DNA of 64,000 bases from an uncultured Acidimicrobiales bacterium (GCA_963803875.1 CAWDOA010000016.1:619033-683032), one strand, 5' to 3'; shown: positions 2,424-53,983, counted from the first letter of the stretch. Notes: generated by a model not told the origin, from the letters alone. Numbers and translations: made by a program.

Positions 2424-2496
2424 GCCCTTGTAGCTCAGTGGATAGAGCGTCGGTTTCCTAAACCGTGCGTCGCAAGTTCGATTCTTGCCAAGGGCG
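2424..2496 (+). tRNA. tRNA-Arg (anticodon CCT)
   Basis: 73-nt cloverleaf: acceptor GCCCTTG/CAAGGGC, D arm GCTC-AGTGGATA-GAGC, anticodon loop TTCCTAA (CCT), T arm GCAAG-TTCGATT-CTTGC, discriminator G. CCA is not encoded. Confidence 0.9.
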
Positions 2497-2569
2497 CTCC
2501 GATCTTGGCCGAGTTCAGGTGGCGTGGTCATGTGCTGTGACGCAGTCTCGGCACCCTGGTGCGTTTGTT

Positions 2570-2746
2570 CTACGGCGTCGTGGATAGTGACCCGTATTCT
2601 GTTGGGCGGCTTGTTTGCTGACGCCGAGCATCGCTGCGATCTCGGACCAGCTTTGCCCCTGCGTCCCGTGCAGAGCGCACCGCCGCGACGAGGTCATCAT
2701 CTACCTCGTTGCGTTGTTCGACGAGTTCGGCGGGCCCGATGAACAT
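2570..2746 (-). pseudogene. small helix-turn-helix protein (~58 aa) readable only with two compensating frame steps
   Basis: MFIGPAELVEQRNEVDDDLVAAVRSARDAG continues as QSWSEIAAMLGVSKQAAQQ in the neighbouring frame (step near the GGGG run at 2656-2659). It returns near 2598 to ..YGSLSTTP stop. The HTH-like segment is ORF 2515..2700. Confidence 0.3.
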
Positions 2747-2845
2747 CGTGACTGCGGGGTCCTCTGTTCGAAGGCCCGCCAGTGGTTGCGAATCGCATGC
2801 ATCATGTCGTCGTCGGTCGACAACAAACGACCGGATCGGTAGGCC

Positions 2846-3184
2846 TCACGCACCAGGAATCTGAAAAACGACGACTACGGCGAACATCGCAACGACGATC
2901 GACGCGAGCAGAGGCAGTACCAACAACAGGCCCCGATCACCCTTGCGTATGGCCAGGACCAAGAAGATGAGGGCACCGAACATCGCTACGCCAAGAAACG
3001 GGATCGGCCACAACACCCCGAAAAACACTGCGACGCGTCCTTCAAGAGTCGTCGGCAGAACCGAGCGACCCCACAACGTCCAGCGGGCAGTCTCGGAATC
3101 GGCGGGCTGGTGTTGGTAGGGCTGCTGTTCGTGCTGTACGCCCTCGCCTCGTTTCTTCTCGACCATCTTGGTTCTACGTGTCAT
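2846..3184 (-). CDS. hypothetical membrane protein (2-3 predicted TM segments)
   Basis: ORF with a polar N-terminus, then hydrophobic stretches VAVFFGVLWPIPFLGVAMFGALIFLVLAI and LLLVLPLLASIVVAMFAVVVVF. Start is ATG at 3184 (GTG at 3193 also possible). Confidence 0.45.
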   Translation of the reverse strand: MTRRTKMVEKKRGEGVQHEQQPYQHQPADSETARWTLWGRSVLPTTLEGRVAVFFGVLWPIPFLGVAMFGALIFLVLAIRKGDRGLLLVLPLLASIVVAMFAVVVVFQIPGA

Positions 3185-3445
3185 CGGAACCACCTCTTTC
3201 GGTTTGTGACCACCCGGAAAAATCGGATGTCTCTAGCTTCTTTCTGCCACGTCAGCGTCGCCGCCACCAGAGCCGAATGACCAGATCTTCGGCGAGAGTC
3301 CGTGCTCGGGCCGCCAGACCGGATTGCGGCAGAATGGCCGCCCGACCGAAGAGCTCACCTCGCATATTGATAAACGTTCGATTCGAACGACCCCTCAGCT
3401 TGCAGCGTTTCTGAATATCCCCACTGACGATTCGATCGACTCAGC

Positions 3446-3841
3446 TTGAACGTCGGTACTGATCAGGCCAAGAACTTCAAGGACCTTGCAGCCCCTCTCT
3501 GCGAAGACGCCGAGTCGGCGAAGAAGATCGGCGAGTACAAACAGGCCGTCGAGGCCGAACCCGTTGCACACCAGCTCGGCGAACTCCGTTGCGAACTTGG
3601 AGTCGACGAAGTAGAGCTAGCTGAACGGCTCGGGACGAGCCAGGTCGTTTCGTCGAGACGCATGCTCGCCGATTTGATCGATCTCTTCGGGTGCGAGCGG
3701 TCGTGCGAAGCTGCTCATGTACGTCATGCGTTTCATCCAGACCTCATCCTCCTGATCCCCGGTCCTGCGAGAGACGCTAGTGGAAGGTCGGGCCGCATCG
3801 TCAAGGTGCTGCGGCGTGCACGAGCCAGCTCAACTCGATGA
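3446..3841 (+). CDS. hypothetical protein with XRE-like HTH segment (weak call)
   Basis: The TTG-start ORF contains LGELRCELGVDEVELAERLGTSQVVSS, which resembles an XRE-type HTH. The region looks lower in GC. The C-terminal third looks non-protein-like. Confidence 0.25.
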   Translation: MNVGTDQAKNFKDLAAPLCEDAESAKKIGEYKQAVEAEPVAHQLGELRCELGVDEVELAERLGTSQVVSSRRMLADLIDLFGCERSCEAAHVRHAFHPDLILLIPGPARDASGRSGRIVKVLRRARASSTR

Positions 3842-3912
3842 ACACTTGGCGATCCACGAGTCGGCGTGGGTATCAGTTTGGATGTCCAGAATGGTCCTAG
3901 TCTGGCCACTTC

Positions 3913-4248
3913 ATGGTTCTGGTGGTACTCACGCTTGGTTCGGCAGGAGCCTTTCTGTTCTATGGGTATGAGACGCTGTTTGGGGATCCTCGGCGAGCGG
4001 AGTTCGAGCGCTACGGGATGTCGAGACTGAGAGTCTTTGTCGGATGTATGCAAGTGCTGGGAGCGGTGGGCACTTTGATCGGGCTCGCATCTGCCCCGAT
4101 CGGGGCTGCGGCCGCTGGTGGTTTGACATTGATGATGTTGCTCGGCTTGCTCGTGCGGTACCGGATTCACGATGCGCCTCGGTTGATGGTGCCGGCAGCA
4201 ACGCTCGCTGCGGTCAACGGTGCGCTTCTCTTCCTTCACCTGGGGTGA
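3913..4248 (+). CDS. DoxX-like family small membrane protein
   Basis: 111 aa, about 4 hydrophobic segments, with a pattern typical of DoxX-like proteins (FxxYGxxxxxRxxxGxxxxxGAxGxLxG ... RxHD). Confidence 0.7.
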   Translation: MVLVVLTLGSAGAFLFYGYETLFGDPRRAEFERYGMSRLRVFVGCMQVLGAVGTLIGLASAPIGAAAAGGLTLMMLLGLLVRYRIHDAPRLMVPAATLAAVNGALLFLHLG

Positions 4249-4262
4249 GTCGCGGACACGCA
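4188..4262. repeat. direct repeat copy 1 (3' end of the DoxX-like gene plus 14 nt)
   Basis: 75 nt, about 90% identical to 6953..7027. The first 33 nt are identical (GGTGCCGGCAGCAACGCTCGCTGCGGTCAACGG). Confidence 0.9.
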
Positions 4263-4370
4263 GCGATAGCTTCCATCACGGTGTCGAACTGATCACAGCT
4301 CGGTGAGGCAGTGGTCACACGGCGGCCACTCGACTTAGCACTAAATGCTGAGCGGGTCTTTACTCTGGCC

Positions 4371-5189
4371 ATGTCCTTCGAGAATCTCTATGACTACTCC
4401 TCAACTCAGTTCGAGATAGTACTGAGCGTCTTTACCCTGACGGCCGCAGTGTTTGCTGCGGTGCTCGTGTACTCGCTGGCAACAGCCGGGTCCATTGCCC
4501 CCCGCTATCGCATCACGTCGTATTTGACCGGCGTGGTCATGGTCAGCGCAGTGCTGGAGCTCGGACTGTTGGCCCTCCGATGGTCAGGCTCGTTCTCCTG
4601 GAACGGGGAGAGCTACACCCTCACCGGCGACCTGTTCTCCAACGGTTTCCGCTACATGAACTGGAGCATCGACGTTCCTGTCCTGCTCACACAGCTACTG
4701 GTGGTGGCCGGCATCACCGGAGGTGTGTTCTTCCGCCGGTGGGCCTCCTTCGTCGTGGCCGGTCTCGCAATGATCTGGACCGGCTACGTCGGTCAGTTCG
4801 ACGAAGTCGACGGAGGCGCCCAGTTCTGGATCTGGGGTGCCATCAGCACCGTCTTCTATTTGTGGCTTCTCTATGTCGCCTATCAGACCATCAGCGATGC
4901 CCGTGCGAATGCCTCAGAGTCGGTGAGCCGCCTCTTCGGCATCGTGTGGATCCTCTTCCTCGTCTCCTGGACGATCTACCCCGTTGCATACCTCATGCCC
5001 CAGATCTGGGACACGGCCAACGGTGTGGTTGCACGCAACCTGATCTACAGCTTCGCCGACATCAGCTCCAAGGCTGTGTACGGCATCCTTCTTGCCGTGA
5101 TCGCCCAGAAGGTGAGCGCCGAAAAGGGTTTCAAGCCGGCCATCGAATCGGACTTCTGGTCTGACCGCAAGGCGGAGGTGGCGCCATGA
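4371..5189 (+). CDS. microbial (type I) rhodopsin, NDQ motif = sodium-pumping rhodopsin type
   Basis: Seven hydrophobic segments. Helix C reads RYMNWSIDVPVLLTQ (N/D/Q at the BR D85/T89/D96 positions). The retinal lysine is in FADISSKAVYG. The protein aligns along its length with KR2-type NaR as I recall it (GDLFSNGFRY, WGAIS, IWILFLVSWTIYPVAYLMP). Start is ATG 4371 (MSFENLYDY), with GTG 4311 possible. Confidence 0.9.
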   Translation: MSFENLYDYSSTQFEIVLSVFTLTAAVFAAVLVYSLATAGSIAPRYRITSYLTGVVMVSAVLELGLLALRWSGSFSWNGESYTLTGDLFSNGFRYMNWSIDVPVLLTQLLVVAGITGGVFFRRWASFVVAGLAMIWTGYVGQFDEVDGGAQFWIWGAISTVFYLWLLYVAYQTISDARANASESVSRLFGIVWILFLVSWTIYPVAYLMPQIWDTANGVVARNLIYSFADISSKAVYGILLAVIAQKVSAEKGFKPAIESDFWSDRKAEVAP

Positions 5190-5665
5190 CGACCGTGGCG
5201 ACAACCTCCCCCCTTGACCGGCCCTATCCCGAGCACGAGTCGAAGCCGTTCTTTGCGGAAACGATCACTCTCCTCCGATCGGTCAGGGATCACGATTTCG
5301 ACACGCTGGCTGGATTGTGCGATGACGACTACGGGATCGTCGACATCGCTCCCGACGGGACAAACGTGGCCATCAGGACCCGTGAAGAGTGGGAGGGATG
5401 GTTCCACGGTCTCTTCGGTCAGCTGACCGCAATGGGCGCTGATACCGACAGCGAGATACTGGCCTATGACGCCGTGGGTGCAGAGTCGATGGGCTATTCG
5501 GTACTCGAATTCCGACAGACCTTGAAGGTGGGCGACCTCGTGGCGTCATTCGACTGCATGACCACCATCGTGTGGAAGAAGGCCGACGGCGTCTGGCGCG
5601 AAGCTCGATGGCACGGTTCGGTGTTGTCCAGCGACGTGCCCCCGGGACTGGGAAGCGATTCGTGA
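5186..5665 (+). CDS. NTF2-like / SnoaL-like (DUF4440-type) small protein
   Basis: 159 aa. The ATG overlaps the rhodopsin stop (ATGA, 4-nt overlap). The pattern LLRSVRDHDFDTLAGLCDDDY ... EWEGWF ... TTIVWKKADGVWREARWHGS is typical of the NTF2-like fold. Confidence 0.7.
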   Translation: MTTVATTSPLDRPYPEHESKPFFAETITLLRSVRDHDFDTLAGLCDDDYGIVDIAPDGTNVAIRTREEWEGWFHGLFGQLTAMGADTDSEILAYDAVGAESMGYSVLEFRQTLKVGDLVASFDCMTTIVWKKADGVWREARWHGSVLSSDVPPGLGSDS

Positions 5666-5877
5666 GGTTCAAGAGGAGCCAACAAAGGCATCCACGCTGA
5701 ACAATCTGCCCTATCCCGTGCGAGCCAAACCGCCATTCCGTGTGGCAGGCTTCCTCGCTTTCCTCTTCTCGGTCTACCTCTAGTTCGTGCAGGGCGAGCA
5801 AATGATCGGCATCTTCGTCGGTCTCTGGGTCCGGTCGATCCACTCGCTCGGAACTCTGGTGCTGATCCCCGTTGCAG

Positions 5878-6873
5878 TCAGCTCGAAAGAACTTGCGTGG
5901 GTAGTTCGAGCCCGGCCTCAAACCCCGAGATGTTCTCCATTGTGACCCGGGCAATGGTGGTGAGCGCCGTCTCGGTGAAAAAGGCCTGGTGCCCGGTGAT
6001 CAATACGTTCGGAAACGTCATCAGGCGGGCGAAGGTATCGTCGAGCAACACCTCGGCAGAAAGATCCTCGAAGAACAGTCTTGATTCTTCCTCGTAGACG
6101 TCGAGCCCCAGGTGACCGATCTTGCCCGATTTCAGTCCGTCGATTGCAGCCTCCGCGTCCACGAGCGCACCCCGGCTCGTGTTGATGATCATGACCCCGT
6201 CCTTCATCACAGCCAGCCGTTCTCGATTGACGAGGTGGAAAGTCTCGGGGGTCAGTGGACAGTGGAGCGAGATGATGTCCGAGGCAGCGAGCACGTCATC
6301 GACCGGTGCGTAGGTTCCGCCCAACTCGAGGATCCGCTGGTTCTCGAACGGGTCAGCAGCAAGCAGTACGGTGCCGAACCCTGCCATGATCTCAGCGAAA
6401 CACGCGCCGATTTCGCCGGTGCCGATGATGCCGACCGTGCGACCATGAAGGTCGAAGCCGAGCAACCCGTCGAGGGCGAAGTTGCCATCCCGAACGCGGT
6501 TGTACGCTCGGTGGATCTTGCGGTTGAGGGACAGGATCAGGCCGACGCAGTGCTCGGCGACCGCGTGAGGCGAGTACCGGGGGACTCGCGCCACTGTCAG
6601 CCCCAGCCGGGTGGCAGCGTCGAGATCGACATGGTTGAAGCCGGCCGAGCGGAGTGCTACCAGGTTCGTTCCGCCCTCAGCGAGGACCTCGAGTGTGGTA
6701 GCGCCGAGATCGTCGTTCACGAACGGGCATACCACCTCAGCGCCTGAGGCCAGTCTGGCTGTGCCCGGATTCAGGCGGGTCTCGTAGAAGTGGAGTTCGT
6801 GGCCTGCGGTCGTGTTTGCAGCGCGCAGGAAGTGCTCGTCGTACGACCTCGCGCTGAAGACTGCTACACGCAT
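5878..6873 (-). CDS. ldhA: D-lactate dehydrogenase-like D-isomer 2-hydroxyacid dehydrogenase
   Basis: 331 aa, collinear with E. coli LdhA as recalled ([83 protein letters not shown]). Confidence 0.85.
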
Positions 6874-6952
6874 GGGTTGACGCTACCAAAGCCCGGAGAA
6901 CCAGAGCTAGCCGACGAGCTGGGAACGGTTCTGTCCCATTACGAATCGCGTG

Positions 6953-7027
6953 GGTGCCGGCAGCAACGCTCGCTGCGGTCAACGGAGCGCATCGTTTCCT
7001 TCACCTGAGGTGAGTCGCGCAGACGCA
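6953..7027. repeat. direct repeat copy 2 (orphan relic of the DoxX-like 3' end)
   Basis: Reads VPAATLAAVNGAHRFLHLR-stop, versus VPAATLAAVNGALLFLHLG-stop in the intact gene. No upstream coding part is present. Confidence 0.9.
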
Positions 7028-7031
7028 ATTC

Positions 7032-7418
7032 CTACCGGCCGTCGTGGTTTCCGCCGTTGAGGATCGCCGCTACTGCTGCTCCGGTGAAGACTGAGATGGC
7101 AGGTATGGAGCGCTTGAGGGGATCCTTGACTTTGACGTGCATTCCGATTGCCCCGAGCATCATTGTGGCGAGGCCGATTGATGCTGGCCGAGCGATCTTG
7201 GGGACGAAGAGCCCGATCAGCATCATGATGGCGAGGCTCACCTTCGTGGCTCCGACTACGTACATGGTTCTTTCCGAGAGTCCGTATTCCTCAAACTCTT
7301 CTCGCATGTTCGTTGCGTCACCGCCTCGATATCCGGTGTCTTTGTTGAATCGGTTGAACCAGACGTTGAGGAGCCAGAGTGCGGATGCGGTTTGGGCGAT
7401 CTTGCCGATGATGGTCAT
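7032..7418 (-). CDS. DoxX-like family membrane protein (second, divergent copy)
   Basis: 128 aa with hydrophobic segments. The EEFEEYGLSERTMYVVGATKVSLAIMMLIGL ... MHVKVKD pattern matches the DoxX-like family. Confidence 0.65.
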   Translation of the reverse strand: MTIIGKIAQTASALWLLNVWFNRFNKDTGYRGGDATNMREEFEEYGLSERTMYVVGATKVSLAIMMLIGLFVPKIARPASIGLATMMLGAIGMHVKVKDPLKRSIPAISVFTGAAVAAILNGGNHDGR

Positions 7419-7719
7419 GTCAAAACCCTTCGTTCAGGCCACAGCGGATCTGTGATCACACGTTCCCCACATGTTCGGGGATGAAACCATCGTATGACGT
7501 GCGCTGCGTCACCGGAAACTGAGCAGACGAAGTGTCGTGATCAGCGTGTCGCGGCCGGATCCGGCGTTCTCGGCACCTCGCGGGCTAGACCCGCCGCCAG
7601 GTTTGGAGCCAAACGATGGTCGACATCGAAACCCTCGGCAGTCGCCCGGCTTGCGAGCGGCAATGGCACCGATGTTCCGGTGAGTCGGTCACCCAGGATC
7701 CGGTTGATGTCGAGTTGTC

Positions 7720-8649
7720 TCACGACCTCGCGGGGCCGGACGCGGGGAGTGGTTGGCGGAACAGTCCGTCCGGGATCGGGGCGTTGCAGCGCACTAATGC
7801 GAGTTGCCAGGATGGTGATGCGCCGAGTGCCCATCGGAGTGCGCCCGTAGCGTTCTTTCCGATTCCGGCCGCGCGTTTGCCTGGCTCGACGTCCAGTTGG
7901 GTTCGGATGTCGGAGGGAATCGTGGTCAGGGCGGCTTCGAACAGCAGCCGGTAGCCGATCTTGACCGGCGGGTTCAGCGGAGGGTTGCGGAGAAAGCTGA
8001 TGGCGCTCGCCTGTGCTTTGGTCGCGACGCGATCGGGATGGTTGGTGATCCAGTGAGAGAGTTCTTCCGCTGTTTCGGGAAGCGGATCAGCACCCAAGAG
8101 CTTGCCGATCCGGGTCTGTTCGGCCACAAAACGGTCAGCGTCCGCGACGCTGAGCCGGTCTGGGCCGAACGCCTGGTAGGAAGCAAGGAACGAGTCGGTC
8201 AAGACGTTGTGGACCCATGCCGCCATCTCGGGACGGCTGGCACTGTAGGGGAGGTTCCGTTCAGACAATCCTTTCACGGGACGGTGTGCTCGACGAACAA
8301 CCTGCACGGCGGATTCAACCTCGGGCATCGCCCCATAGGTGGTTTCAGTGACATACACCGAGGTACGCGACAATCGTCCGAGAGGGTCCGAGCGATAGGT
8401 CGAGTGGTCCTCCACCCCGGCTACAACTTCAGCGTGGGCAGACTGGACCACCAGTGCCCGGATCCCTCCCACGAACACCGCAGCATCGCCGAGCACTCGC
8501 CACGACACCGACTCGGGTCCGAGCAGTCCAGGATCGCCGGGGAAGTCCAGAGTGTTCGCCAACGGTGTTGGGCCGTGTGAGAACAGGCCCGTCATCGCCG
8601 ACACAACCGGGTCACGAAGCTTGCGGCTCAAATTGCTCATGGCCAACAC
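7720..8649 (-). CDS. DUF2236 / MpaB-type oxygenase family protein
   Basis: 309-aa ORF. The segment SVSWRVLGDAAVFVGGIRALVVQSAHAEVVAGVEDHS is characteristic of DUF2236. The C-terminal ~40 aa look less protein-like. ATG at 8640 is an alternative start. Confidence 0.65.
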   Translation of the reverse strand: MLAMSNLSRKLRDPVVSAMTGLFSHGPTPLANTLDFPGDPGLLGPESVSWRVLGDAAVFVGGIRALVVQSAHAEVVAGVEDHSTYRSDPLGRLSRTSVYVTETTYGAMPEVESAVQVVRRAHRPVKGLSERNLPYSASRPEMAAWVHNVLTDSFLASYQAFGPDRLSVADADRFVAEQTRIGKLLGADPLPETAEELSHWITNHPDRVATKAQASAISFLRNPPLNPPVKIGYRLLFEAALTTIPSDIRTQLDVEPGKRAAGIGKNATGALRWALGASPSWQLALVRCNAPIPDGLFRQPLPASGPARS

Positions 8650-8805
8650 TGTCGCTCCTCATTGCAGAGGAGCGCCACTCGAAAGAAACTGTCAGCAGGG
8701 TCAACGGACCAACTTCCATCAGCGGCGTTGGTGTGGCCGGCTTCCTCTTCTCGGTCTACCTCTACGTCGTGTGACCTGTTCGGCTGCGTGGTTAGGATCG
8801 AGATC

Positions 8806-9276
8806 GTGCCCGAACTCGAAACGCTCAAGGCCTGGCCCGCAGCGCGTTGGTGGTTTGCAGTCGCGATGGCCTCGGTCAGCGCGCTCGCCATCGGGTTGCC
8901 TACCGACGTGATCCCCAACCCCGTGTTCGGGCGCCAGGGCACGCCGGTTGAGCCGTGGGCTCTGCCGGTGCTGGCGATCACGGCAGTACTCAGCGGTGTA
9001 CTTTTCGCCACGTACTACCAGGACGGCGAAACCGACTCGCGCAGCGAGCTCGACCGATCCAGCCGACTTGGCAGTGTCGGAGGGCTGCTGTCGTTCTTCG
9101 CCGTCGGATGTCCCATCTGCAACAAGTTGGTCGTGATTGCGCTCGGCACCTCCGGCGCGCTCACCTGGTTCGCTCCGGTCCAGCCCTATCTGGGTGTCGT
9201 CGCCCTGGGTCTGCTGGTGTGGGCTCTGCGGGTCCGCTTGCGAGGCGAGGTCGCCTGCACGGTCAAAGCCTGCTGA
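8806..9276 (+). CDS. hypothetical membrane protein with CPxC motif
   Basis: About 4 TM segments, with FFAVGCPICNKLVV inside a TM segment. A GTG at 8806 is the first plausible start, because the upstream part of ORF 8662..9276 is Ser/Thr/Arg-rich junk. Confidence 0.5.
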   Translation: MPELETLKAWPAARWWFAVAMASVSALAIGLPTDVIPNPVFGRQGTPVEPWALPVLAITAVLSGVLFATYYQDGETDSRSELDRSSRLGSVGGLLSFFAVGCPICNKLVVIALGTSGALTWFAPVQPYLGVVALGLLVWALRVRLRGEVACTVKAC

Positions 9277-9403
9277 GCTCGTCCCCTCGCCGGGCCGAAG
9301 GCGCCCGCAACGACGTCGGTACCCATGCCGACCCCGCCCAGTTGGCGGCTCGAATCGCGTTGAGAACTTGGCTATGAGGGTGCTCATGGGCAACGCTGGC
9401 GTG

Positions 9404-10351
9404 ATGACAGAGATTCGCCATGATTGGACCGTCGACGAAGTGCTCGCGGTAATCGAGCGCCCGTTCCACGAACTTCTTGCCGACGCCCACCGGTGTCACG
9501 TCGATCGATTCGAGGCCCAGGTAATCGAGGCGGCCAAGCTACTGTCGATCAAGACTGGCGGATGCCCTGAGGACTGTGCCTACTGCCCTCAGTCCGCTCA
9601 TCACAGCACTGGACTCAAGGCGTCACCGCTCATGGACACCCAGTCGATCGTCGCCGCCGCTGTGGAAGCAAAGGCCGAAGGTGCGACTCGTTTCTGTATG
9701 GGTGCAGCCTGGCGTTCACCCTCCGATTCCCAGGTCGATTCGGTTGCCGAGTCCGTCGAGGCAGTGGCCGAGGTCGGTCTGGAGACGTGCGTGACGCTGG
9801 GCATGTTGACCGAGGCGCAGGCCATCAGGTTGAGCGAGGCCGGCCTGGACTTCTACAACCACAACCTCGATACCTCGGCTGACTTCTACGGCGAAATCAT
9901 CACGACCCGGACCTACGAGGACCGGCTGGATACCCTCGCCAATTGCAGGGAGGCCGGCATTTCGCTGTGTACGGGCGGCATCGTCGGAATGGGCGAAACT
10001 CGTCGCCAGCGAGCTGCGCTTCTCACGCAACTCGCAACGCTACGCCCGCACCCGGAGAGCGTCCCGATCAACCTTCTGATCCAGGTGCCGGGCACACCGC
10101 TTCAAGGTCTGCCCGACTTCCCGCCACTCGAGTTGGTTCGCACGATCGCCGCAACCCGTTTGGTCATGCCGGCATCGGTCGTTCGCCTCTCGGCGGGGCG
10201 AGCCTCGATGTCGGAGGAGCTCCATGCCCTCTGCTTCCATGCGGGAGCGAACAGCATCTTTCTCGGGGAACGCCTACTGACGGCTGGCAACAACGGCAAC
10301 GAGGAAGACCATCGCATCCTGGACCAGATCGATGCAACCCTGAAGGTCTGA
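9404..10351 (+). CDS. bioB: biotin synthase
   Basis: Radical-SAM CPEDCAYC, with SIKTGGCPEDC, RFCMGAAW, YNHNLDTS and GGIVGMGE collinear with BioB. The N-terminus MTEIRHDWTVDEV matches the usual BioB start. The upstream extension of the ORF is Pro/Arg-rich. Confidence 0.9.
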   Translation: MTEIRHDWTVDEVLAVIERPFHELLADAHRCHVDRFEAQVIEAAKLLSIKTGGCPEDCAYCPQSAHHSTGLKASPLMDTQSIVAAAVEAKAEGATRFCMGAAWRSPSDSQVDSVAESVEAVAEVGLETCVTLGMLTEAQAIRLSEAGLDFYNHNLDTSADFYGEIITTRTYEDRLDTLANCREAGISLCTGGIVGMGETRRQRAALLTQLATLRPHPESVPINLLIQVPGTPLQGLPDFPPLELVRTIAATRLVMPASVVRLSAGRASMSEELHALCFHAGANSIFLGERLLTAGNNGNEEDHRILDQIDATLKV

Positions 10352-27851: not shown

Positions 27852-28328
27852 ATGAGCGGGTTCCGACGAACCGAAGTATTCGTTGTCTTCCTGGTCGCCG
27901 TGCTTGCCGTCGGCCTTCTGCTGGTTGGCCTCAATCGCGATCGGACCGTCGTCGATGCGAAACCGGAGCGCACACCTTCGACCAGTTCCGCCTCGTTGTC
28001 ATCGACGACCAACACAACCCCGGCACTGATCACCGCCCCGACCACCGCTGCGTCAGTGGCCCGACAACCAACCGCTGCGCCCACAACAACTGCGCCCACA
28101 ACCGCGGCGCCCACAACCGCTGCGCCCACAACCGCTGCGCCCACAACCGCGGCGCCCACAACCGCGGCGCCCACAACCGCTGCGCCCACAACCGCTGCGC
28201 CGACGACACAGAGGAAGCGGACGACTACCACTAGGCGGCGCCCGCCCACCACCAGGCCGCCCACCACCGCCCCGCCCACGCAGCCGCCGCGGACGTTCCC
28301 CCCTCCAACCTGGACGGTGGCACCCTAG
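27852..28328 (+). CDS. membrane-anchored Pro/Thr/Ala-rich repeat protein
   Basis: GGAGGTG upstream of the ATG. N-terminal TM VFVVFLVAVLAVGLLLVGL, then (APTTA)n and a Pro/Thr/Arg tail. Confidence 0.6.
   Translation: MSGFRRTEVFVVFLVAVLAVGLLLVGLNRDRTVVDAKPERTPSTSSASLSSTTNTTPALITAPTTAASVARQPTAAPTTTAPTTAAPTTAAPTTAAPTTAAPTTAAPTTAAPTTAAPTTQRKRTTTTRRRPPTTRPPTTAPPTQPPRTFPPPTWTVAP
28077..28211 (+). repeat. 15-bp in-frame tandem repeat (~9 units) encoding APTTA
   Basis: GCGCCCACAACCGC(T/G) iterated. The first and last units are degenerate. Confidence 0.9.
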
Positions 28329-37932: not shown

Positions 37933-38805
37933 ATGACAATTGTGGTTGATGCCGGCGGTCCTGACGAGGTTTGGATGAGCGAGTTGGAACGTCTGCTTCC
38001 CGACGAAGCGTTCGTCGGGAAGGACGCCCCGGTCGACCCCGCCGATGTGGAATTCGTTGTTCACTGGCAGCATCCGACGGAGAAGATCCTCGGTTATCGG
38101 AATCTTCGGGGCCTGGTGTTGTCGAGCGCCGGATTCGATCACGTGCCGCCCGAGATTCGCACTGCGGTGCCGGTGGTTCGTTTGATCGACCCTGCCATGG
38201 CGGTTGACATCGCTCACTTCTGCTTGAGCTGGATCATTCATTTCCAACGAAACTTCGACCGGTTCGCCGATCAGCAGGTTCGTTTCGAGTGGCGCAAACT
38301 CGAGCCGATCTTTCCTCGCGACTACACCGTTGGTGTGCTCGGTCGAGGTCAGATCGGAACGGTGGTGCTCGACGCAATCGCCGATCAGGGATTCACGGTG
38401 GTTGGTTGGTCCCGATCGAACAACGATCGAAGTCTGAACCAGTTTTTCGCCGATTGTGACGCCGTCGTCAACCTGTTGCCGAACAATGAGGGGACCCGTC
38501 GTCTCATCTCAACCGATCTCCTGTCGGCGCTCGGCAATGGAGTCCTGATCAACGTCGGGCGTGGCCCAACCGTTGACTCCGACGCCTTGCTGGGGGCACT
38601 TGACGGTCCGCTTCGGGCGGCGGTGCTCGATGTGTTTGACACCGAACCCCTGCCGGCCGACAGCCCGCTCTGGGCGCACCCCAAGATCCGGATCACGCCC
38701 CACATCGCCGGGAGGACCGATCCCTACACCGCAGCAGCAGTGGTCGCCGACAACATTGGGGACCTGCGAGCCGGTCGTGAACCGGCTGGCTTGGTGCGGT
38801 TCTAG
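37933..38805 (+). CDS. D-isomer 2-hydroxyacid dehydrogenase (glyoxylate/hydroxypyruvate reductase A-like)
   Basis: VGVLGRGQIG, INVGRGPTVD, LDVFDTEPLP, ITPHIAGRT. Confidence 0.8.
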   Translation: MTIVVDAGGPDEVWMSELERLLPDEAFVGKDAPVDPADVEFVVHWQHPTEKILGYRNLRGLVLSSAGFDHVPPEIRTAVPVVRLIDPAMAVDIAHFCLSWIIHFQRNFDRFADQQVRFEWRKLEPIFPRDYTVGVLGRGQIGTVVLDAIADQGFTVVGWSRSNNDRSLNQFFADCDAVVNLLPNNEGTRRLISTDLLSALGNGVLINVGRGPTVDSDALLGALDGPLRAAVLDVFDTEPLPADSPLWAHPKIRITPHIAGRTDPYTAAAVVADNIGDLRAGREPAGLVRF

Positions 38806-53497: not shown

Positions 53498-53872
53498 ATG
53501 CGCAACGCCATCACCAGCCCAAACGCTTCTTCAGTTGGTCCATACAGCCACGCCATCGATGCCGGCGGTTTGGTATTCCTCAGCGGTCAGACACCGCTCG
53601 ATTCGGCCACCGGAACGCTGATCGAGGGCAGCATGGCCGACCGCACCCAGAAGTGCTTCGACAACCTCATGGATGTGCTGGCCGCGGCCGGGCTCACCTC
53701 TGATCATGTCGTCAAGGTGAACGTATTCCTCACCGACATGGCTGACTTCGCAGAGATGAATGAGGTGTACAAACAGCAGTTCAGCCAGCCGTACCCAGCC
53801 CGCAGCACCGTGGCGGTCGCCGAACTCCCGCTCGGTTCCGACATCGAGATCGAACTGGTGGCACAGCGATAG
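53498..53872 (+). CDS. ridA: RidA/YjgF family reactive-intermediate deaminase
   Basis: VGPYSHAIDAGGLVFLSGQ, VKVNVFLTDMADFAEMNEVY, PARSTVAVAELPLGSDIEIE. Confidence 0.85.
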   Translation: MRNAITSPNASSVGPYSHAIDAGGLVFLSGQTPLDSATGTLIEGSMADRTQKCFDNLMDVLAAAGLTSDHVVKVNVFLTDMADFAEMNEVYKQQFSQPYPARSTVAVAELPLGSDIEIELVAQR

Positions 53873-53983
53873 CTGCGAGTTTCAGCGATAGCTGCGAGTT
53901 TCAGCGATAGCTGCGAGTTTCAGCGATAGCTGCGAGTTTCAGCGATAGCTGCGAGTTTCAGCGATAGCTGCGAGTTCCAGCGG
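53864..53983. repeat. 19-bp tandem direct repeat, 6 full units plus a partial
   Basis: CAGCGATAGCTGCGAGTTT appears x5 exactly, the sixth unit has one mismatch, then CAGCGG. Unit 1 contains the ridA stop codon (TAG 53870-53872). Confidence 0.95.

Follow-up and report, generated by a model that had tools for sequence, protein, structure and literature searches.

Results

Genes and repeats at the locus

We analysed a stretch of 64,000 nt (hereafter, the window) from an uncultured Acidimicrobiales bacterium (CAWDOA010000016.1:619033-683032), in which a type-1 rhodopsin gene lies between two convergent genes encoding DoxX-like membrane proteins. Every open reading frame (ORF) in 2846-10351 was scanned against Pfam. 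The gene on the left, DoxX-A (3913-4248, plus strand), encodes an intact 111-aa membrane protein of the DoxX_2 family (PF13564, 2.3e-9), and the gene on the right, DoxX-B (7032-7418, minus strand), belongs to the same family (PF13564, 1.6e-12); they score 37.8 and 47.9 bits, respectively, for a gathering cut-off of 26.3. DoxX-B has as its conserved neighbour a gene with an MpaB/Lcp-type oxygenase domain (7720-8649, minus strand; PF09995, 1.3e-45). Four features are found between the two DoxX genes: the rhodopsin gene (4371-5189, plus strand; PF01036, 3.6e-34), a SnoaL_3/NTF2-like gene (5186-5665, plus strand; PF13474, 3.6e-7), a pseudogene of a small protein with two transmembrane (TM) segments, called sTM below (5694-5864, plus strand), and a gene for a D-isomer 2-hydroxyacid dehydrogenase resembling D-lactate dehydrogenase (D-LDH), called ldhA (5878-6873, minus strand; PF02826, 4.7e-51, and PF00389, 2.1e-26). 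An earlier interpretation made from this DNA by eye (the sequence-only reading) had counted exactly three genes in the interval and had overlooked the pseudogene.

The interval is bracketed by two direct repeats of 75 nt on the plus strand, R1a (4188-4262) and R1b (6953-7027), which are identical at 68/75 positions (91%) and throughout their first 33 nt, and whose flanks beyond the repeat do not align. The sequence-only reading was right about these coordinates, about an identity of some 90% and about the identical start of 33 nt; it had described the first copy as the last 20 codons plus the stop codon, whereas the repeat starts with 1 nt and 19 codons, which are followed by the stop codon and by 14 nt of the spacer between the genes. 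R1a belongs to the 3' end of DoxX-A itself and keeps the conserved hydrophobic tail ...GALLFLHLG. R1b encodes VPAATLAAVNGAHRFLHLR followed by a stop codon (7011-7013), and its translation confirms the orphan tail without a gene body that had been described; it ends 4 nt short of the stop codon of the convergent DoxX-B. The window contains the 33-nt core exactly twice, and 100 dinucleotide shuffles did not contain it at all; the whole 64 kb has only two dispersed exact repeats of at least 20 nt, both of them involving this locus. Chance as the origin of the repeat is excluded.

The retention of R1 as a terminator or another structure was considered and rejected, since the segment folds at the level of shuffled sequences (z = -0.75 to +0.27). 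Promoter, terminator and Rfam scans returned only a tRNA and nothing that would explain why R1 was kept. Elsewhere in the window there are two tandem arrays, one at 28069-28201 (15-nt unit, 8.9 copies, 93% matches) and the other at 53864-53982 (19-nt unit, 6.3 copies, 99% matches).

Empty sites in related genomes

Related loci (designated by L numbers) came from a scan of species-representative genomes with the MpaB gene as anchor, which gave 80 orthologous loci of Acidimicrobiia, and from metagenomes scanned with an alignment of DoxX-B, which gave 80 further loci. Of the 80 loci anchored on DoxX-B, 60 have DoxX-A and DoxX-B side by side in convergent orientation, as do L023, L048 and L050. 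A DoxX gene directly followed by the counterpart of 7032-7418, the empty site that the sequence-only reading had suggested looking for, is therefore the normal arrangement. In the closest relative, L089, identity to the window is 92% for MpaB, 91% for DoxX-B and 80% for DoxX-A at the amino acid level, and 84-89% at the nucleotide level, and the gene order MpaB - DoxX-B - DoxX-A is the same as that of the window flanks. The length of DoxX-A and its conserved tail are those found in L089, L092, L023, L048 and L050. The stop codons of DoxX-A and DoxX-B are 18 nt apart in L089, which is precisely the distance in the window between the stop codon of R1b (7011-7013) and that of DoxX-B (7032-7034).

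Five relatives (L089, L090, L091, L092 and L097) define the breakpoints. In all of them, homology to the left flank reaches 4242-4261, homology to the right flank begins exactly at 6953, and one single stretch of each relative, about 55-74 nt long (74 nt in L090 and L097), can be aligned with R1a as well as with R1b. These breakpoints indicate that 2,690 nt (4263-6952), missing from the five empty-site relatives, were inserted with a duplication of 75 bp, and the duplicated stretch spans DoxX-A codon 93 to 4 nt before the DoxX-B stop codon. The comparison of loci shows the arrangement of the ancestor, with DoxX-A and DoxX-B tail to tail, their stop codons 18 nt apart, and MpaB beside DoxX-B. 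Empty sites and breakpoints together give strong support to the insertion at a DoxX 3' end with duplication of the target, as first proposed from the sequence.

None of the approximately 65 other DoxX-A/DoxX-B pairs was found occupied. In two loci, a 3' remnant of DoxX-A stands beside an intact DoxX-B and unrelated DNA replaces the gene body: about 29 codons are left in L047 (5500-5588) and about 40 codons in L105 (around 1364-1483). The event in L105 must be very recent, since this locus is 98% identical to L104, which has an intact DoxX-A. Both were examined as a second use of the insertion site and rejected: in L047, the breakpoint is about 25 nt off and the change is a replacement, with no displaced DoxX-A body on the available contig, and L105 is a replacement of this kind as well, with another breakpoint. 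From these loci, the DoxX-A/DoxX-B boundary is a rearrangement-prone region and not a specific site. Exact-sequence look-ups with DoxX-A and the rhodopsin of the window matched no contig.

The two copies of the repeat

Either copy of R1 matches the relatives at no more than 61/75 positions, and both copies are equally far from them. R1a and R1b are thus closest to each other, which points either to a duplication within this lineage or to a donor that was a very close relative. The seven differences between the copies were polarised with outgroups. Changes derived in R1b are CTT CTC to CAT CGT (Leu-Leu to His-Arg, where all functional homologs have Leu-Leu) and one change in the spacer; those derived in R1a are one synonymous change and one spacer change, and one further difference is ambiguous. 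Since the radical changes are on the side of R1b, the polarised differences indicate that R1b is a decaying relic of the DoxX-A 3' end, left at the ancestral position, and that R1a serves as the working tail.

All seven differences fall within the last 42 nt and none within the first 33 nt. Under uniform decay, such a skew has a P of about 0.013, or of about 0.055 if the clustered CAT CGT changes are taken as one event. The window and L089 differ with a similar skew (2 differences in the first 33 nt versus 14-15 further on), which is explained by the conserved VPAA(T/S)LAA(V/I)NG encoded in those 33 nt. Being shared, the pattern does not separate copies that were initially identical from two diverged alleles.

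Composition of the insert

The sTM pseudogene was recognised by tblastn and blastn to intact sTM genes (in L024, L033, L041, L055, L059, L063, L092, L146, L158 and others). It carries an in-frame TAG (5781-5783) where the relatives have a Tyr, and it lacks its 3' end, being truncated at the ldhA stop codon. No Pfam family was found for sTM; as a rule, the sTM genes of relatives overlap by ATGA with a second small TM gene downstream. The intact genes of relatives are located directly upstream of DoxX-B or DoxX-A, or beside MpaB (L092, L095, L108, L109, L143, L146, L149, L158 and others), so that the insert holds a gene typical of this very neighbourhood, and one relative can hold two copies (L109). 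Part of the pseudogene, R2a (5740-5789, plus strand), is repeated with a 9-nt indel as R2b (8731-8771, plus strand), a 41-nt relic of the 5' end of another sTM copy; R2a/R2b is the only other dispersed repeat pair of the window. R2b is located just beyond the point, around 8715, at which homology between the window and L089 ends upstream of MpaB. The possibility that R2a/R2b was a second duplication of the same event is weakened, since the 30-nt core of R2b is 86-90% identical to distant sTM genes versus 93% to R2a.

The best NCBIfam matches of ldhA are D-LDH/VanH models, all of them below their curated cut-offs. Homologs of this gene adjoin DoxX-B in L140 and lie 5-8 kb from MpaB in L059 and L060. 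On the minus strand, the gene is now downstream of, and co-directional with, MpaB and DoxX-B. The window contains a second 2-hydroxyacid dehydrogenase paralog at 37933-38805 (plus strand; 2-Hacid_dh_C, 2e-36). Judged by the homologs of its parts, the insert is a mosaic of at least three pieces, namely, the rhodopsin and SnoaL module, the sTM pseudogene and the D-LDH-like gene.

The rhodopsin module and its contexts

The best PDB match of the rhodopsin is 8qle (ErNaR; 2.8e-68). Its RYMNW, IDVP and LTQ motifs (N, D and Q) and its FADISSK motif align column-for-column with 8qle, the second counter-ion Asp and the Schiff-base Lys are present, and VLELG aligns with ALELG of ErNaR, which corresponds to the additional Glu of helix B (E64 of ErNaR). 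With the residue roles and numbering described for ErNaR-like rhodopsins (PMC11006869), the equivalents of N101, D105, Q112, E64, D242 and the Schiff-base Lys are all aligned. The protein is thus predicted to be a light-driven sodium pump of the ErNaR-like subgroup (subgroup 2, N-D-Q motif with the extra Glu in helix B). In contrast to ErNaR (PMC11006869), it comes from Acidimicrobiia and not from Erythrobacter, it is coupled to a SnoaL_3 gene, and its ion specificity is a prediction only.

The ATG of the SnoaL_3 gene overlaps the rhodopsin stop codon (ATGA, 5186-5189), and this overlap recurs in several lineages (L084, L087, L169), which argues for translational coupling of the two genes. The sole PDB sequence match of the SnoaL_3 protein is the NTF2-like association domain of CaMKII (E = 0.006). 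The coupled pair was also observed in L002, L084, L085, L087, L088 and L169, and L170 has the pair with a short gap, while the SnoaL partner is missing in L001, L083, L086 and L128.

We compared the genomic contexts of rhodopsins that are 78-96% identical. Homology to eight rhodopsin-bearing relatives is limited to about 4364-5651, that is, from the start of the rhodopsin gene to just before the SnoaL stop codon. Searching for the cassette elsewhere, as the sequence-only reading had advised, revealed the rhodopsin and NTF2/SnoaL module in five other contexts: next to a divergent CarH-like B12-binding regulator (L083, L087, L088), between cupin and Usp genes (L002, L084-L086), downstream of a Usp gene (L169), beside Tad pilus genes (L001), and between an IS5/IS1182-type transposase and DoxX-B (L128). 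So many contexts argue for frequent movement of the module among Acidimicrobiia. A short upstream element, AGCACTAAATGCT (4337-4349, plus strand), located at -34, is common only with the closest rhodopsin relative, L169.

In L128, a DDE transposase of the IS5/IS1182 type is found directly upstream of the 78%-identical rhodopsin gene (L128 146-3183), which itself sits immediately upstream of DoxX-B and DoxX-A, and this constitutes an independent association of a rhodopsin with the DoxX pair. Among rhodopsins flanked by more than about 1 kb of DNA, that of L001 (ena:ERZ25039499:contig_10176) is the closest (93% identical), closer ones (P0123 and P0124) being on contigs of 1-2 kb. The L001 contig is a fold-back (palindromic) assembly, with its genes mirrored around 9-10 kb, and it was used cautiously. 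While the rhodopsins are 93% identical, PGI on the same two contigs is just 64% identical, a discrepancy that speaks against a purely vertical history and hints at transfer.

Codon usage and source of the insert

GC content at the third codon position (GC3) is 0.79 for the rhodopsin, 0.76 for SnoaL and 0.77 for ldhA, versus 0.746 +/- 0.032 for 47 background genes, and the z scores of their codon adaptation index (CAI) range from -0.1 to +0.3. The codon usage of the three genes is native. Total GC is low at about 2800-6200 and again at 7000-7600, the 5' half of ldhA being above average; the lower total GC of the rhodopsin gene is due to codon positions 1 and 2, as expected of a membrane protein. 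The truly atypical stretch is 2846-4248, and it includes DoxX-A (GC3 0.67, CAI z = -4.0). Lower GC was therefore rejected as a mark of the cassette: the visual impression given by the sequence-only reading is not specific to the cassette, whose genes have a GC3 at or above the background.

That reading had also taken the footprint as consistent with a horizontal acquisition of the pump, and had named native codon usage among the findings that would speak against it. With codon usage and GC3 found to be native, the acquisition is unproven. The insert showed only a generic 2-hydroxyacid dehydrogenase similarity to plasmids and nothing to phages, and an origin from either was rejected. Native codons, the pseudogene of a local gene and the mutual closeness of R1a and R1b rather point to this genome or a close relative as the source, or else to an old event that has been ameliorated.

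Discussion

Origin of the insertion

On balance, the insertion probably arose by homology-anchored recombination combined with illegitimate joining, i.e., homology-facilitated illegitimate recombination (HFIR), and not by transposition, a view that we hold with modest confidence. Donor DNA from a sister chromosome, or from a closely related cell of Acidimicrobiia, would have contained a DoxX-A 3' end followed by the rhodopsin block. Its DoxX-A end would have paired with the resident DoxX-A by homologous recombination, and, 75 bp before the shared homology runs out, illegitimate joining would have linked its far end to the resident chromosome. The incoming tail would have become R1a, and the resident tail would have been stranded as R1b. 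A single crossover with a circular form of the donor DNA would give the same product. The insertion would have survived because both DoxX genes remained intact. Stranded 3' fragments of the resident locus are a known outcome of HFIR, an established route (PMC3240628; PMC5361080), and the corresponding feature is present here: DoxX-A and R1a run directly into the insert, and R1b has been left behind at the ancestral position. Like in the Rhs loci and the effector-immunity arrays of type VI secretion systems (T6SS; PMC3240628; PMC5361080), DNA has entered beside a conserved anchor gene, one junction is in homology and the other is illegitimate, a resident fragment is stranded downstream, and no dedicated recombinase has to take part. 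In contrast to these arrays, the stranded piece is just 75 bp long, nothing was displaced or lost, both neighbouring genes being intact, the cargo is a phototrophy module and not a toxin/immunity pair, and the donor arrangement has not been observed. That the mismatch skew between R1a and R1b mirrors the one between the window and L089 is what two diverged functional alleles would be expected to show.

Several points weigh against an origin by HFIR. It needs a donor in which the block was already joined 14 nt past the DoxX-A stop codon, and the original insertion is thereby pushed back. This donor arrangement, DoxX-A directly followed by the rhodopsin, is absent from about 170 loci, which were found by scans anchored on MpaB, DoxX-B and the rhodopsin and not on DoxX-A. 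Microhomology at the illegitimate joint is usual in HFIR, if not obligatory, and none was visible beyond the repeat at either junction (0-1 nt at 6952/6953). The non-genic pieces of the insert (4263-4370, 5652-5700 and 6874-6952) gave no homolog anywhere. Finally, at least three of the seven differences between R1a and R1b are clearly decay after inactivation, so the copies could have started identical, which fits a duplication in situ equally well.

A staggered double-strand break would produce such a duplication. The DNA would have been nicked at two points some 75 nt from each other, in DoxX-A codon 92/93 and just short of the DoxX-B stop codon, and end-joining would have captured one or more linear fragments totalling 2.69 kb. 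Filling of the overhangs would have given two initially identical copies of 75 bp. The duplicated segment is exactly one stretch of the empty site, the junctions show neither a homology-dependent feature nor microhomology, the radical changes of R1b indicate that much of the divergence is later decay, and a mosaic insert would fit the capture of several fragments. We still regard this as quite unlikely, as 75 bp is far above the duplications usually generated by repair and as the lack of any change of R1b in the first 33 nt is somewhat unlikely under neutral decay (P of about 0.01-0.06). A history of several local steps, with no single insertion and with R1b as the last remnant of a second DoxX-A copy, is also unlikely. 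Such a history could have begun with the tandem duplication of a segment with the DoxX-A tail and sTM, for instance, and continued with the deletion of one DoxX-A body, insertion of rhodopsin and SnoaL, and replacement by, or insertion of, ldhA. The interleaved order R1a - sTM pseudogene - R1b - sTM relic speaks for it, and so do the mosaic insert, the two sTM copies of L109, the sTM of L092, which stands directly upstream of DoxX-A at a position where the window has lost it, and the independent cutting of DoxX-A to 3' remnants in L047 and L105, which suggests that the boundary often rearranges. However, four or more events would be required, and neither the sequence that follows R1a nor the one that precedes the sTM pseudogene matches anything upstream of the sTM genes of relatives. 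Moreover, the R2 copies are, over 30 nt, barely closer to each other than R2b is to distant sTM genes, which argues against a recent duplication, and the end of the homology upstream of DoxX-A, at 3883, is common to all relatives and is therefore no breakpoint. The tandem duplication of an sTM-DoxX-A unit was rejected as such, with no supporting homology in the non-genic pieces of the insert.

Direct repeats of a gene 3' end around an insert, a replacement tail that restores the ORF, and an identical core followed by diverged arms make up the classical footprint of integrase-borne islands, and R1a and R1b could accordingly be read as attL and attR of a site-specific element, with the 33 nt as the crossover core and the recombinase gene lost since. 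Such a remnant is highly improbable here: neither the 2.69 kb nor the adjoining 4 kb to the left and to the right hold an integrase, excisionase or other mobility gene, the insert is tiny for an island and matches no plasmid or phage, a local gene is represented in the cargo by a pseudogene, and the 65 or so other DoxX pairs are unoccupied, the disrupted sites of L047 and L105 being replacements that break at least 25 nt away. The nearby tRNA-Arg (2424-2497) was rejected as an island boundary, since its 3' end is not repeated anywhere in the window. Insertion of a transposon or insertion sequence (IS) with target-site duplication, an assembly artefact and chance similarity taken together have a next to negligible probability. 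Target-site duplications made by transposases place a stretch of the empty site on both sides of an insert, as is seen here, and the transposase beside the rhodopsin of the distant relative L128 suggests that IS-assisted movement of rhodopsins occurs in the group. Yet these duplications are 2-15 bp long, versus 75 bp in the window; the insert contains no transposase domain, and its two ends (4263 and 6952) are not paired by any inverted repeat. Transposition is thereby excluded. A repeat collapsed or duplicated by the assembler is ruled out by the 7 mismatches between the copies, and chance by the shuffles.

A further reading, which we consider very unlikely, would make the rhodopsin block a recombinase-free mobile cassette that spreads in Acidimicrobiia on the conserved ends of neighbouring genes. 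Host recombination between the R1 copies, with their identical block of 33 nt, would loop out a circle of 2,765 bp and restore the empty site exactly, and any related cell could take up the circle again through its own DoxX-A tail. In a similar vein, the insertion site may have been selected and not accidental, in a DoxX-A/DoxX-B/sTM/MpaB cluster that may have to do with light response, as heliorhodopsin, BLUF and type-1 rhodopsin genes recur beside it.

Rhodopsin genes on the move

The relocation and lateral transfer of rhodopsins, as in the 'photosystem' gene sets of proteorhodopsin, are well known. The window resembles these cases in that a small self-sufficient unit is found in many genomic contexts among related organisms, and differs from them in giving breakpoints to the base pair together with an empty site, which are rarely available. 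It also differs from the proteorhodopsin sets in that no retinal or carotenoid genes travel with the rhodopsin, whose partner is the NTF2/SnoaL-like gene. The insertion is a clean and unusually well resolved, but fairly ordinary, example of rhodopsin gene shuffling. It is a rare catch of the act of insertion, as breakpoints, the empty site of a close relative and a datable relic come together, and it allows a sodium-pump-type rhodopsin of uncultured Acidimicrobiia to be seen moving as a minimal unit of two genes, with its NTF2/SnoaL-like partner and without the machinery of mobile elements. It also calls for caution, since a low total GC in a gene for a membrane protein is no evidence for a foreign origin, GC3 and codon usage being native here. 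Should the repeats around the cassette still be able to recombine, ordinary homologous recombination could remove it or pass it on, and the patchy distribution of rhodopsins would then have a simple mechanism.

Surroundings of the DoxX pair

Upstream of DoxX-A is a conserved leader (3883-3912, plus strand), and it is here that, by blastn start points, homology to all relatives begins. In an alignment of the upstream regions, an element of about 35 nt (…CCAGAATG.CCGTAG.CTGG…ATG) is kept in all relatives (homologous positions of L089-L097), and beyond it each relative differs from every other. The leader may be a regulatory element. A translocation of DoxX-A itself, with a breakpoint at 3883, was rejected, since all relatives share just this leader and then diverge.

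The tRNA-Arg(CCT) at 2424-2497 is syntenic with L089, and the 1.4 kb from this tRNA to DoxX-A differ (region 2424-3882 of the window and 2368-3447 of L089). L089 has a heliorhodopsin gene there (Pfam 8e-97), whereas the window has a 115-aa membrane ORF and a remnant of a BLUF-like gene (blue-light sensor), with atypical codon usage (GC3 0.64-0.70). The remnant (3647-3808, minus strand), upstream of DoxX-A, is truncated, ending after about 35 residues of the domain, and is 59% identical to the BLUF gene found at the same position in L092.

On the other side of the cluster, a 162-aa membrane ORF (8788-9276, plus strand) with a GCPICN (CxxC) motif and no Pfam family is absent from about 170 related loci. 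As it starts right after the sTM relic, the right side of MpaB seems to have been rearranged as well.

In L089, the 18-nt spacer between DoxX-A and DoxX-B and its flanks (L089 2005-2095) form a palindromic hairpin (GAGCGATC…GATCGCT; fold z = -2.9), which is probably a bidirectional terminator. Among the spacers that were folded, only that of L089 gave a significant hairpin, and in the R1 copies of the window the L089-type hairpin is largely lost.

In about 11 of 165 loci, including L089, L044, L006, L030, L104, L092, L128 and L158/L160/L166, the DoxX-A/DoxX-B/MpaB cluster has photoreceptor genes (heliorhodopsin, BLUF and type-1 rhodopsins of two clades) at a distance of up to 10 kb, and in five they directly abut it. 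The cluster may thus be a light-related neighbourhood. MpaB/Lcp-type oxygenases cut isoprenoid double bonds, and a link of MpaB to retinal would be pure speculation.

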